NCBI GenBank assembly: GCA_002304845.1
Contig: DBPM01000017.1
Location: 1,198-29,141 of the forward strand
Length of the DNA: 27,944 bases
Direction: 5' to 3'
Source of the DNA: Candidatus Shapirobacteria bacterium UBA1420
Lineage (GTDB): Bacteria > Patescibacteriota > Microgenomatia > UBA12405
Of this stretch, positions 14,385 through 16,804 are shown in pieces. Made by a program: the position numbers and the translations under genes. The notes below the pieces were generated by a model. It was given only the letters and a program-made list of their open reading frames with translations, did not search any database and was not told where the DNA came from. Within the stretch, counting starts at the first letter, position 1. Every line of letters starts with the position of its first letter.

Positions 14385-15454
14385 ACTTCTACAAAACTAA
14401 GGGCATTCACCGAACCGCTTTCCAACCAGTTGTTTCCATGTATCAAAAGTAGTTTGCTTTTATTTTTAATCAGTTTTGCTCTTTTAAGTTCTTCAAAAAT
14501 ATCGTGATTTTTATCAAAATATTTATCAGTAAATTTTTTAAAATAGGGGATTACCCCATAAGATAGATTTAATAATTTTGCTACTTCTTCTTGGTCGGTA
14601 ATGGCAATGATATTTTTCTTGAGACGATAATTACTTAATTTTTGCGCTGATCCTCCGGATTTTGTAAAGACAACGACTGCATCTGCAAATTCTGATAAAT
14701 CTTTAGCCGACTTAATTATTGTTTCCCCTAAAGTGTAGTTATTATGTTCAATTTCTTTGATATCACCGTTTTTCTCACTAAAACCTAAAATTTTACTCAT
14801 TACTTTAACTGCTTCCACTGGATGTTCTCCAATCGAAGTTTCTTCCGACAACATCACCGCATCGGCTCCGTCAAACAAAGCATGAGCCACATCAGAAGCC
14901 TCCGCTCGAGTCGGTAGGGGATTTTTAGTCATGGATAGCAGCATCTCTGTAGCCACAATTACCGGTTTGTTGGCTAATCTGGTGGTATCAATAATTTTTC
15001 CCTGTAATGTAGCTAATTCTTCAATCGGAATATTTCTTCCCAGGTCGCCTCTAGCTACCATGACTCCGTCTGCCACTTGAATAATTTCTTCCAAATTTTT
15101 GAGCGCTGAGATATTTTCAATCTTGGCAATAATCGGTAATTTTCGTCCCTGTCTTTTTAATCTCTCTTTTACTTTCTCAATCTCTAACGCATTTTTAATA
15201 TATGATACGGCCACCATATCCACATTTTCAAAAATTTCAAAATCAAGTCTGGGAATATCCAAAAGTATCGGCACCTTACTACCACTTACTTTTCTAATAT
15301 TTCTAATTGCTTTTTGATGCCAACTTTTATCATTATATTTAGTGTTTAATCGACAAACATTCACTCCGTTTTGAATAATTTCGCTCAAGACTTTTTCACT
15401 TTCCGTCGCCGGCCCCACCGTCGCCACAATTTTACTTTTTCTATTTTGAGTCAT
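14381..15454 (-). CDS. pyk: Pyruvate kinase, divergent, lacking the B (lid) domain
   Basis: SKIVATVGPA, IIAKIEN, DGVMVARGDLG, PVIVATEML, PTRAEASDV, DAVMLSEET, plus a C-terminal alpha/beta domain. Confidence 0.9.
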   Translation of the reverse strand: MTQNRKSKIVATVGPATESEKVLSEIIQNGVNVCRLNTKYNDKSWHQKAIRNIRKVSGSKVPILLDIPRLDFEIFENVDMVAVSYIKNALEIEKVKERLKRQGRKLPIIAKIENISALKNLEEIIQVADGVMVARGDLGRNIPIEELATLQGKIIDTTRLANKPVIVATEMLLSMTKNPLPTRAEASDVAHALFDGADAVMLSEETSIGEHPVEAVKVMSKILGFSEKNGDIKEIEHNNYTLGETIIKSAKDLSEFADAVVVFTKSGGSAQKLSNYRLKKNIIAITDQEEVAKLLNLSYGVIPYFKKFTDKYFDKNHDIFEELKRAKLIKNKSKLLLIHGNNWLESGSVNALSFVEV

Positions 15455-15515
15455 CTATACCATCATAGCAAAGAAAAATATTCCAAGATTTATTTACTTT
15501 ATGTTATTTGTTTTG

Positions 15516-15586
15516 TTACCCCGCATGGATTCGAACCACAATTCTTACGTTCAGAGCGTAATGTCCTACCATTAGACGACGGGGTA
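15516..15586 (-). tRNA. tRNA-Gln(CUG), 71 nt, CCA not encoded
   Basis: TACCCCG/CGGGGTA acceptor stem with U1-A72, D arm GTCTAATGGTAGGAC, anticodon arm TTACG-CTCTGAA-CGTAA, T loop GGTTCGAATCC. The next bases are CAA. Confidence 0.95.
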
Positions 15587-15593
15587 CAAACAA

Positions 15594-15658
15594 AATGTCC
15601 TACCATTAGCTGCCTCATCGGCAGCCCGCCGAAGAGGCGGGACGATGGTGTACAAACA
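15594..15658 (-). repeat. Copy B of the tRNA-Gln 5' end with a 32-nt double-hairpin insert (15609-15640)
   Basis: TGTTTG-TACACCATCGTC-[CCGCCTCTTCGGCGGGCTGCCGATGAGGCAGC]-TAATGGTAGGACATT, with two mismatches to the tRNA acceptor strand. Confidence 0.93.
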
Positions 15659-15660
15659 TT

Positions 15661-15918
15661 TTAGTCTTCCAAGCTATATTTTATCTTATCTTTTAATACT
15701 TCTCTACCGTAACCACTCTTCCAAAACACTTCGGCAGCAGTTGCATCCCTCTTATCTTTAAATGCTTCAAAAAATATTAATTCAAAAGGAGCATTTCGTG
15801 ACGTATATTTGCTTCCTATTTTTTTATTATGTTCCTTAAATCTTTTGTTTATATCTCCAGTGTAACCGGCATATAAAGAATGATTCTTTTTACTTCTTAG
15901 AACATATGTAAACCACAT
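15661..15918 (-). CDS. Small stand-alone GIY-YIG nuclease, 85 aa (alternative start 15933)
   Basis: FTYVL...LYAGYT...KRFKEHN...SKYT...AAEVFWKSGYGR retains the Tyr/Tyr-Gly/Arg/His/Glu positions of the GIY-YIG module. Confidence 0.88.
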   Translation of the reverse strand: MWFTYVLRSKKNHSLYAGYTGDINKRFKEHNKKIGSKYTSRNAPFELIFFEAFKDKRDATAAEVFWKSGYGREVLKDKIKYSLED

Positions 15919-15926
15919 TACAAATT

Positions 15927-15979
15927 CTACCATTAGCTGCCTCATCGGCAGCCCGCCGAAGAGGCGGGACGACGGGGTA
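15927..15979 (-). repeat. Copy A of the tRNA-Gln 5' end with an identical 32-nt insert (15936-15967)
   Basis: TACCCCGTCGTC-[same 32 nt]-TAATGGTAG, an exact match to the first 21 nt of the tRNA apart from the insert. Confidence 0.93.
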
Positions 15980-15989
15980 GCATTTTGAT

Positions 15990-16012
15990 ATTTTATCGTA
16001 AAAAGTTATAAT
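15990..16012. promoter_or_regulatory. Divergent -10 boxes: putative tRNA/GIY-YIG promoter (minus) and promoter of the 16018 ORF (plus)
   Basis: Minus strand: TAAAAT at 15990-15995, 10 nt before copy A. Plus strand: TATAAT at 16007-16012, 5 nt before ATG 16018. Confidence 0.55.
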
Positions 16013-16017
16013 TCTCT

Positions 16018-16188
16018 ATGAAAACTATCGATGAACTAGCCGTTGAACTTAAACTCACCCCCGATCAGACCCAAGGGATTAAAAAATATTTTGAAGATTC
16101 AGTAATCGAACTCTTAACTTCTCTTCAACAAGACAATCATCAAAGTTTTGAAGAGACCATTAATTCCATTCGCAATACTGACAATTAA
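16018..16188 (+). CDS. Unannotated 56-aa acidic helical protein
   Basis: MKTIDELAVELKLTPDQTQGIKKYFEDSVIELLTSLQQDNHQSFEETINSIRNTDN*. A perfect TATAAT lies 5 nt upstream. The ORF is below the track's size cutoff. Confidence 0.7.
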   Translation: MKTIDELAVELKLTPDQTQGIKKYFEDSVIELLTSLQQDNHQSFEETINSIRNTDN

Positions 16189-16804
16189 ACCACTCTCTGG
16201 CTTCAGCCACAGTTGTTTTTTCCCCATGTCCCGGCAATATTTCTACCTCATCGGGTAGTTTTAAAACTTTACAAATACTTCTAAACATTTCTCTATTGGA
16301 ACTGTATTGATGTCTGGTGTCACCTCTCATGCCTCCGGCAAAAATCAAATCTCCGTCAAATAAAAATTTATCCGCCAAAATTGACACCCCTCCGGGAGTA
16401 TGTCCGGGTGTTTTCATAATTTTTATTTTTTGCTCACCCAAGCTTAAACTCTGGGTTTTATCCAGATCAATGTCAATTTTTTTAAAATTCGGTACCTGAA
16501 TTTTTGCTCCTAAAAAATGGTTAGCACTTTCTTGTTGTCTGGCTAATAAAAAGAAGTCTTTTGGACTGGCACAAAAAGGCACTTGATAAATTAATTTCAA
16601 ATCCAGCGCCGCTAAATTATGGTCAAAATGCCCGTGAGTCGAAATGACGTATTTAAGTATCAGTTGCCTTTTTCCTATTTCTTCAGAAATTGTCTCCGCA
16701 CTGTCGGCAGCGTCTATCACCACTGATTCCTGACTTTGACTATCCCATAATAGGTAACAATTGGTCGCCAGTTCTCCTAAAACCAGTCTTTCATATTCAA
16801 ACAT
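16160..16804 (-). CDS. MBL-fold metallo-hydrolase (glyoxalase II-like)
   Basis: TNCYLL, THGHFDH, TPGHTPG, GDLIF, ILPGHG. Confidence 0.92.
   Translation of the reverse strand: MFEYERLVLGELATNCYLLWDSQSQESVVIDAADSAETISEEIGKRQLILKYVISTHGHFDHNLAALDLKLIYQVPFCASPKDFFLLARQQESANHFLGAKIQVPNFKKIDIDLDKTQSLSLGEQKIKIMKTPGHTPGGVSILADKFLFDGDLIFAGGMRGDTRHQYSSNREMFRSICKVLKLPDEVEILPGHGEKTTVAEAREWFNCQYCEWN

Follow-up and report, generated by a model that had tools for sequence, protein, structure and literature searches.

A clade-specific double hairpin accompanies a single-domain GIY-YIG nuclease gene lodged in a tRNA-Gln gene of Candidatus Shapirobacteria

Introduction

Why does the same 32-nt double hairpin occur twice at one tRNA-Gln(CTG) locus, each time within a broken copy of the tRNA gene? 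The locus belongs to a Candidatus Shapirobacteria genome of the CPR (G000; 513,459 bases in 53 contigs) and lies in a stretch of 27,944 nucleotides, hereafter the window, to which all coordinates without a contig label refer. A preliminary description of the window, drawn from the sequence alone, had likened the hairpin to REP repeats and tied it to the small nuclease gene beside it. Here the hairpin, designated H, is examined with respect to its position, its occurrence among relatives, its folding and the word at which it is inserted, and the explanations for its presence are weighed.

Results

Organisation of the tRNA-Gln locus

Exact matches to the 32-mer occur twice in the window, at 15610–15641 and 15937–15968 (none in shuffled sequence), and a search of the whole 513,459-base genome at up to three mismatches found no further copy. 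The identical double hairpin of the preliminary description is real, but both copies lie one base to the right of the positions given there. Sequence identity between the two reaches 46 nt (15600–15645 against 15927–15972). On the plus strand H reads CTGCC-TCATC-GGCAG then CCCGCC-GAAGA-GGCGGG, with TTAG before the first copy.

The single intact tRNA-Gln(CTG) of the locus, recognised by ARAGORN and by Rfam (RF00005, 58.6 bits), is on the minus strand at 15516–15586 (start 15515/6) and, as had been described, carries no H. Read along the tRNA strand, the native upstream flank is followed by tRNA nt 1–11 (15969–15979), one copy of H (15937–15968) and a leader at 15919–15936, which consists of a copy of tRNA nt 12–21 (sense CTAATGGTAG) and 8 nt (sense AATTTGTA); then comes the GIY-YIG ORF (15661–15918). 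After the ORF there are 8 nt (15653–15660, sense AATGTTTG) and a middle unit without an ORF, made up of a copy of tRNA nt 1–11 with two mismatches (15642–15652, sense TACACCATCGT), the other copy of H (15610–15641) and a copy of tRNA nt 12–26 (15595–15609, sense CTAATGGTAGGACAT). A further 8-nt spacer (15587–15594, sense TTTGTTTG), similar to the spacer after the stop codon of the ORF, leads into the intact tRNA. These assignments were made by reading the sequence and, for the copies of tRNA nt 12–21 and 12–26, from k-mer blocks shared with the tRNA. In both fragments H follows tRNA nt 11 within the 5′ strand of the D stem, with the 1-nt ambiguity noted earlier (11|12 or 12|13).

A tRNA intron, either group I or bulge-helix-bulge, was considered and rejected: the H-bearing copies end at tRNA nt 21 or 26, and no Rfam intron family was matched. 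An Rfam search over 15300–16200 at E up to 1 returned tRNA alone, so H does not correspond to a known RNA family or intron. Terminator-like sites were sought and none was found, and the reading of H as an intrinsic terminator was dropped. Divergently upstream of the tRNA-Gln there is a 56-aa ORF (MKTIDELA...; 16018–16188, plus strand) that is kept as the upstream neighbour of tRNA-Gln in most of the relatives examined and provides a synteny anchor.

The nuclease gene encodes 85 aa on the minus strand, with its ATG at 15918. A longer ORF, to 15945, extends into H and is not conserved; orthologues (52–81% identity) begin at the same Met. The GIY-YIG domain (PF01541, E 3e-18, residues 10–81 of the long ORF) accounts for approximately the whole protein, with no extra DNA-binding domain, and the residues Y5, Y16, R25 and E63 of the superfamily are present and kept in the orthologues. 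The nearest solved structures are the UPF0213 proteins BH0048 (2e-8) and EF2693, followed by Slx1. The dN/dS ratio of the ORF is 0.07–0.13, which indicates purifying selection.

Two promoter-like sites with identical hexamers (TAGAGA, 17 nt, TAAAAT) are present on the minus strand. One (15990–16018) is the native site, conserved upstream of tRNA-Gln in relatives and now placed to drive H and the ORF; the other (15678–15706) is inside the 3′ end of the ORF and is placed to drive the rebuilt tRNA. The end of the ORF and the native tRNA upstream region agree at 26 of 36 aligned positions. At the nucleotide level the last 16 codons are 77–94% identical and the rest of the ORF 61–73%, and derivatives from which the ORF has been deleted retain exactly its promoter-bearing end. 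The tail of the ORF therefore seems also to serve as a promoter for the rebuilt tRNA; judging from these sequences, the captured native promoter would drive H and the ORF, and the cassette would bring a promoter of its own for the tRNA.

Distribution among relatives

The sister genome G010 has a tRNA-Gln that is 100% identical, with the same divergent small ORF and promoter-like stretch upstream, and no insert; G008 (empty) and G001 (filled) differ in the same way. Filled sites were found in six genomes (G000, G001, G018, G022, G024 and G069) and empty sites in G010, G008, G011 and others, their tRNAs being identical or near-identical, so that the cassette is a presence/absence polymorphism at one conserved site. 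Since the empty sites of G010 and of a wastewater metagenome run (X4) are collinear with it, the distal 11 nt (15969–15979) are the original start of the tRNA, displaced but still joined to the native flank. By the same comparison with G010 and G008, H, the ORF and the replacement 5′ end of the tRNA are inserted DNA: the first 11–21 nt of the intact tRNA-Gln come from the insert and the remainder is native. The carrier G000 and the empty-site genome G010 have functional tRNAs that are 100% identical, and only the displaced pieces are interrupted.

The layout with two copies of H also occurs in public metagenome contigs from four independent studies and is therefore not an assembly artefact. 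The same samples hold contigs with the empty site (as in run X4), an ORF-deleted derivative and a variant lacking the middle unit. Decayed remnants are present in G015, G004, G014 and G093.

Beyond this locus, H lies just 5′ of every full orthologous ORF. Twelve distinct variants stand beside full ORFs at tRNA-Gln(CTG), tRNA-Gln(TTG) and tRNA-Pro(TGG), one of them with a single hairpin only, and H is also found in two ORF-deleted derivatives. At tRNA-Gln it follows nt 11 or nt 21, and both orientations are seen. All H-type hairpins belong to a single clade of the protein tree (support 93–98). A sister clade has a different double hairpin, at tRNA-Lys and tRNA-Val, and in the sister clades the hairpins are downstream of the ORF. 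One further clade is without tRNA and hairpins, and its members look like ordinary YhbQ-type genes. The linkage between H and its clade may in part reflect common descent of orthologous loci.

Copies of H without an ORF were found upstream of tRNA-Arg(GCG) in two genera. Thirteen of the 15 Arg loci surveyed are empty, including that of G011, in which the Arg tRNA and its flank are identical. The short flank before the rebuilt tRNA is similar in the units of both genera and resembles the native flank of the genus of G000, not that of the other genus; it seems from this likeness that the ORF-less unit carries its own flank between genomes.

The core pattern of H matched 11 of the 132 genomes of the order (nine with clear H copies), at one to four copies each, with no control hits. 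What the preliminary description had supposed about an element tied to the nuclease is borne out to this extent, that H behaves as a separable module, found with one GIY-YIG clade at non-orthologous tRNA genes (tRNA-Gln and tRNA-Pro) and without an ORF at tRNA-Arg. Its analogy with REPs, as dispersed repeats, is not supported by these counts, and the two copies in G000 are both at the tRNA-Gln locus.

Of 41 relatives, 33 have more than one small GIY-YIG gene. At the loci retrieved these genes adjoin an intact tRNA, of many isotypes, and on the far side there is an incomplete copy of that tRNA, in which a GC-rich hairpin nearly always interrupts the sequence or takes the place of part of it. 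A contig search added one partial orthologue and one distant relative to the known set.

Variant arrangements were also seen at tRNA-Gln. In G022 and in an independent metagenome (L075:1250–1700 and L006/L065), tandem units of ~120 bp are present downstream of an intact tRNA-Gln, each consisting of tRNA nt 8–11, H, tRNA nt 12 to the 3′ end and a 22-nt spacer; those of L075 and L006/L065 are nearly whole tRNA copies that contain H and lack the 5′ acceptor strand. In G018 (L005) and G020 (L047) a partial tRNA-Gln 3′ end is located downstream of tRNA-Gln, its T arm split by TCCCTAAAGGGA and AT-rich sequence, and in G020 there is no nuclease gene near this copy.

Folding, covariation and insertion site of H

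The two halves of H are inverted relatives with a shared core (GCCTCWTCGGC) and a compensatory T-A/C-G difference, as the preliminary description had pointed out, and H can fold either as two hairpins or as one long imperfect hairpin at near-equal energies. As RNA the two hairpins have a folding energy of −19.5 kcal/mol, and that of the long hairpin varies with the strand from −17.4 to −22.1; as DNA the energy is −12.1, with z about −3 to −4.

The two forms were compared in an alignment of 17 distinct H variants. Under the two-hairpin model, pairing is kept in 100% of 187 cells, and double-sided changes occur at 5 of 11 pairs (13 cells), a level reached by none of 500 shuffles, although such shuffle tests are inflated by the relatedness of the sequences. 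Three varying pairs are not covered by the pattern with which H was searched for, and so were not selected by the search. The long hairpin is paired in 87% of cells, which is below the shuffles, and shows no covariation; it is a possible fold by energy, as first suggested, but has no support from covariation. Covariation thus supports two hairpins and not one long hairpin. Paired changes of this kind can also arise without selection, through template switching in quasi-palindromes.

When the 5-bp and 6-bp stems are used to orient H, the triplet before it is TAG in 15 of the 17 variants, across four independent tRNA contexts (chance about 1.5e-6), and H is inserted without target duplication. 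The word CGTC, which had been read as a tag 5′ of the first stem on the minus strand, is present but is tRNA-Gln sequence; in other contexts AAAC, ATAC, GTAC or GTCC takes its place. The conserved 5′ neighbour is TAG, on the opposite strand.

Other hairpins and cassettes are present in the genome. On contig C16 (3190–3760) a GIY-YIG paralogue begins 11 nt after a tRNA-Thr(GGT), with tRNA-Thr-like copies on either side, two upstream and a diverged one downstream, that have the hairpin TCCGATGGACATCGGA in place of the anticodon arm; the same layout is found in G015 (L032). ORF-less units are located upstream of tRNA-Lys(CTT) and tRNA-Leu(TAG) (C39:4740–5050 and C20:6640–6700), where a tRNA 5′ copy split by the perfect palindrome CCTGCCTGCCGGCAGGCAGG is followed by a short-flank copy and then by the intact tRNA. 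The 20-nt palindrome CCTGCCTGCCGGCAGGCAGG also occurs at C37:22352–22372, in frame in an ORF of 480 aa resembling a membrane protein, to which it adds ~7 residues in the manner of Rickettsia palindromic elements. A third GIY-YIG paralogue (C9:5206–5436) comes after a fragment like a tRNA 3′ end (T arm and acceptor strand), with the AT-rich repeat TTTTTACGTTCCGCCTTCT twice upstream; ARAGORN found no tRNA on contig C9.

A RAYT-like HUH ORF (Y1 transposase, PF01797) at C21:1117–1737 (L115) carries an in-frame interruption directly behind the HUH motif, a palindrome with a GTAG head and the core GACGCCCCGCGGGGCGTC. RAYT-like ORFs are also present in G001, G009, G018, G022 and G024, with other hairpins alongside. 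About ten copies of a GC-rich repeat headed by GTAG (GCCGTAG, then TCCCGC-TCCG-GCGGGG and more) make up a further family in G000, at C11:8850–9360 and on C5, C10, C25, C28 and C37; the copies on C11 are within an ORF of 1022 aa, on the opposite strand.

Discussion

The best explanation of these data is that H is the cis module, particular to one clade, of a small selfish cassette residing in tRNA genes. As to what the module does, our analysis tentatively favours, at somewhat short of an even chance, H being a single-stranded DNA address tag of the adjacent single-domain nuclease. The nuclease gene is flanked by H on both sides in G000, and the tandem or duplicated units in G000 and G022 are counted in favour of such a role. 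H may, on the other hand, not need a neighbouring gene, because perfect stems persist in the ORF-less tRNA-Arg units and in the ORF-deleted remnants.

In this reading the cassette entered the tRNA-Gln gene and split off its original first 11–21 nt, and it supplies a replacement 5′ end and a putative promoter within the last codons of its only gene, so that a working tRNA is kept by the cell. H is a separate 32-bp insert, 3′ of TAG in redundant tRNA pieces, that forms two hairpins when single-stranded. We infer that the nuclease would bind H in single-stranded DNA, as Ssn nucleases do the NTS/SRM hairpins, and would cut beside it rather than in the essential tRNA; because the essential tRNA lacks H and would stay uncut, the main paradox of a homing model would be removed. 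Breaks beside H, flanked by tRNA homology, would then be repaired by recombination, which could duplicate units, giving the second H unit seen here, and could transfer copies of H, or of the cassette as a whole, to further tRNA genes and alleles. Spread by this route would depend on host recombination, because a GIY-YIG enzyme cannot rejoin DNA.

In its most complete form, which we regard as possible but doubtful, the proposal describes a ‘donor-cut’ self-propagating element. A hairpin-addressed single-strand nuclease would cut the border of its own element and not the empty target, and the element would be copied into tRNA genes by host recombination through the flanking tRNA homology, carrying a replacement tRNA 5′ end with a promoter in its last codons, so that an essential gene could be split without death of the host. 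Two simpler schemes were tried and rejected: a target-site duplication (repeat, element, repeat) misplaces H, and a tyrosine-recombinase att model does not fit, H being in only one junction. No one derived mechanism gives the order A-H-B′-ORF-A′-B.

The place of H in the D-arm region could also be read from the side of the target. A free-standing homing endonuclease that cuts double-stranded D-arm DNA would leave targets in the displaced tRNA pieces, and H would serve to split these so that the border of the element is not cut again; the preliminary description had raised such protection as its second possibility. H is indeed always in the D-arm region of redundant tRNA pieces (nt 10–12 or 21|22), the GIY-YIG enzyme SegB cuts within tRNA genes (PMC13096335, PMC2330249), and the gain, decay and loss seen among relatives resemble the life cycle of homing endonucleases. 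We nevertheless judge such a role to be quite unlikely: the tRNA beside the gene is identical to the empty-site tRNAs and has no protective change, the protein amounts to a catalytic domain of 85 aa and lacks a DNA-binding domain, and a mere spacer would need neither a conserved core nor conserved loop ends nor covarying stems. These conserved stems are equally compatible with a function in RNA, since covariation fits RNA as well as DNA. H could be a 5′-UTR double stem-loop that stabilises or tunes the nuclease mRNA, itself driven by the captured tRNA promoter, or one that blocks mispairing of the orphan tRNA piece with the real tRNA; in all full elements of the clade it is situated between the native promoter-like site and the ATG, 7–24 nt upstream of the start, and it folds as RNA at −19.5 kcal/mol. 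Such a role is improbable given that H is found in either orientation, that some units with H have no ORF and that H comes after the ORF in the middle unit of this locus; further points against it are the position of the hairpins of the sister clades downstream of the ORF, the failure to find a terminator-like feature and the lack of a match to any Rfam family.

Another enzyme might instead be responsible for moving H. As a REP/REPIN-like or RPE-like mini-insert, it would be mobilised by, for example, a RAYT-like HUH protein and would land 3′ of TAG where it does no harm, as in dead tRNA pieces. IS200/IS605 elements insert 3′ of a fixed short word without target duplication, which is how H is inserted, and classical REPs have a GTAG head. 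The two inverted, related hairpins of H resemble a REPIN, RAYT-like Y1 (HUH) ORFs are present in G000 and in all five relatives tested, and G000 has other GC-rich palindromes, some in ORF-less tRNA-Lys and tRNA-Leu 5′ copies and some in frame in protein genes. Against this, the type of hairpin tracks the GIY-YIG clade and not the genome: three types are found at three tRNA loci within G000, while H turns up again beside GIY-YIG genes of its clade in further genera and at other tRNAs. No full cassette of the clade lacks a hairpin (one has a single hairpin only), a regularity that opportunistic landing does not lead one to expect; the RAYT-like genes are flanked by hairpins other than H; and matches to the H pattern are confined to 11 of 132 genomes (nine clear), with one to four copies each. 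Transport by such an enzyme is, in our assessment, unlikely.

Targeted full-text literature searches found no paper describing cassettes of a GIY-YIG gene and a hairpin lodged in tRNA genes. The locus adds to what is known a covariation test, the TAG rule, inverted and ORF-less units of H, empty-site controls and a promoter in the end of the ORF. If H is an address tag, it and the nuclease would form a natural pair of a tiny enzyme and a 32-nt single-stranded DNA site, with a sequence unlike the Ssn/SRM pairs of 2025, and would widen the range of site-specific single-stranded DNA cutters. It would also explain how selfish cassettes colonise essential tRNA genes of genome-reduced CPR bacteria without destroying them; to our knowledge few other mobile elements are known from these bacteria. 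Natural substrates are at hand in TAG plus H on two strands and in copies of H whose stems and loops vary. The same habitats further supply naturally occurring alleles (empty, single, double and ORF-deleted) as test material.

Comparison with known systems

H shares with REP/REPIN-RAYT systems and with IS200/IS605 elements a short GC-rich palindromic form, insertion that is specific to one strand, takes place 3′ of a fixed short word and leaves no target duplication, and genomes that contain RAYT-like genes; its pair of related hairpins, inverted to each other, is like that of a REPIN. It differs from REPs and REPINs in that it is not dispersed, does not flank the RAYT-like genes and follows the GIY-YIG clade. 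We know of no covalent DNA intermediate in GIY-YIG enzymes, and they therefore cannot transpose DNA in the way that HUH enzymes do.

From fungal mitochondria, Paquin et al. reportedly described mobile ORF elements, among them the Allomyces atp6 insert, and GC-rich double-hairpin elements. In the atp6 insert an endonuclease ORF is said to bring a replacement gene end and to leave the displaced native end as a fragment, and the small GC-rich double hairpins are likewise said to be mobile in an AT-rich genome, both features being like those of the present locus. The fungal elements reportedly differ in being organellar and in protein genes, and in that the pairing of ORF and hairpin is not fixed.

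SegB of phages T4 and T6 is a free-standing GIY-YIG homing endonuclease that cuts double-stranded tRNA gene DNA (PMC2330249, PMC13096335); it is associated with tRNAs and drives segmental amplification of tRNA segments (PMC13096335). Here, too, GIY-YIG genes are embedded among tRNA genes of many isotypes, and the tandem or duplicated H units of G000 and G022 recall the nuclease-dependent tandem amplification of tRNA-containing segments that is characteristic of SegB. Unlike the present nuclease, SegB is a multi-domain phage enzyme without a hairpin module or hairpin-split partial tRNA copies, and it belongs to no cellular cassette by which a single tRNA gene is split and rebuilt.

In the Ssn system, exemplified by SsnA of Neisseria meningitidis, the GIY-YIG enzyme studied has one domain and 94 aa (Chenal et al. 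2025, PMC11893778). It binds a hairpin repeat solely when the DNA is single-stranded, and its cut falls a few nt upstream; cutting depends most on the three nt preceding the palindrome, and the hairpins of an ssn gene lie on one or both of its sides (PMC11893778). Membership of the present nuclease in the Ssn family (cd10448) is not established. The published degenerate SRM motif has no match at 15400–16100 of the window or in the whole genome (0.9 in shuffles), and H has one to four copies per genome compared with tens to hundreds for the SRM. H is situated in partial tRNA copies and the gene in an insertion that rebuilds a tRNA, whereas the Ssn paper never mentions tRNA. The likenesses are those of a single-domain GIY-YIG protein of ~90 aa (85 aa here) with a similar catalytic spacing (Y5/Y16/E63 here, Y6/Y17/E64 in SsnA), and of a gene flanked by its own 20–50 nt hairpin repeat, on both sides in the present case. 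As in the Ssn system, the orientation of the hairpin is set by a few conserved 5′ nt, here TAG, and the type of hairpin co-varies with the protein clade.
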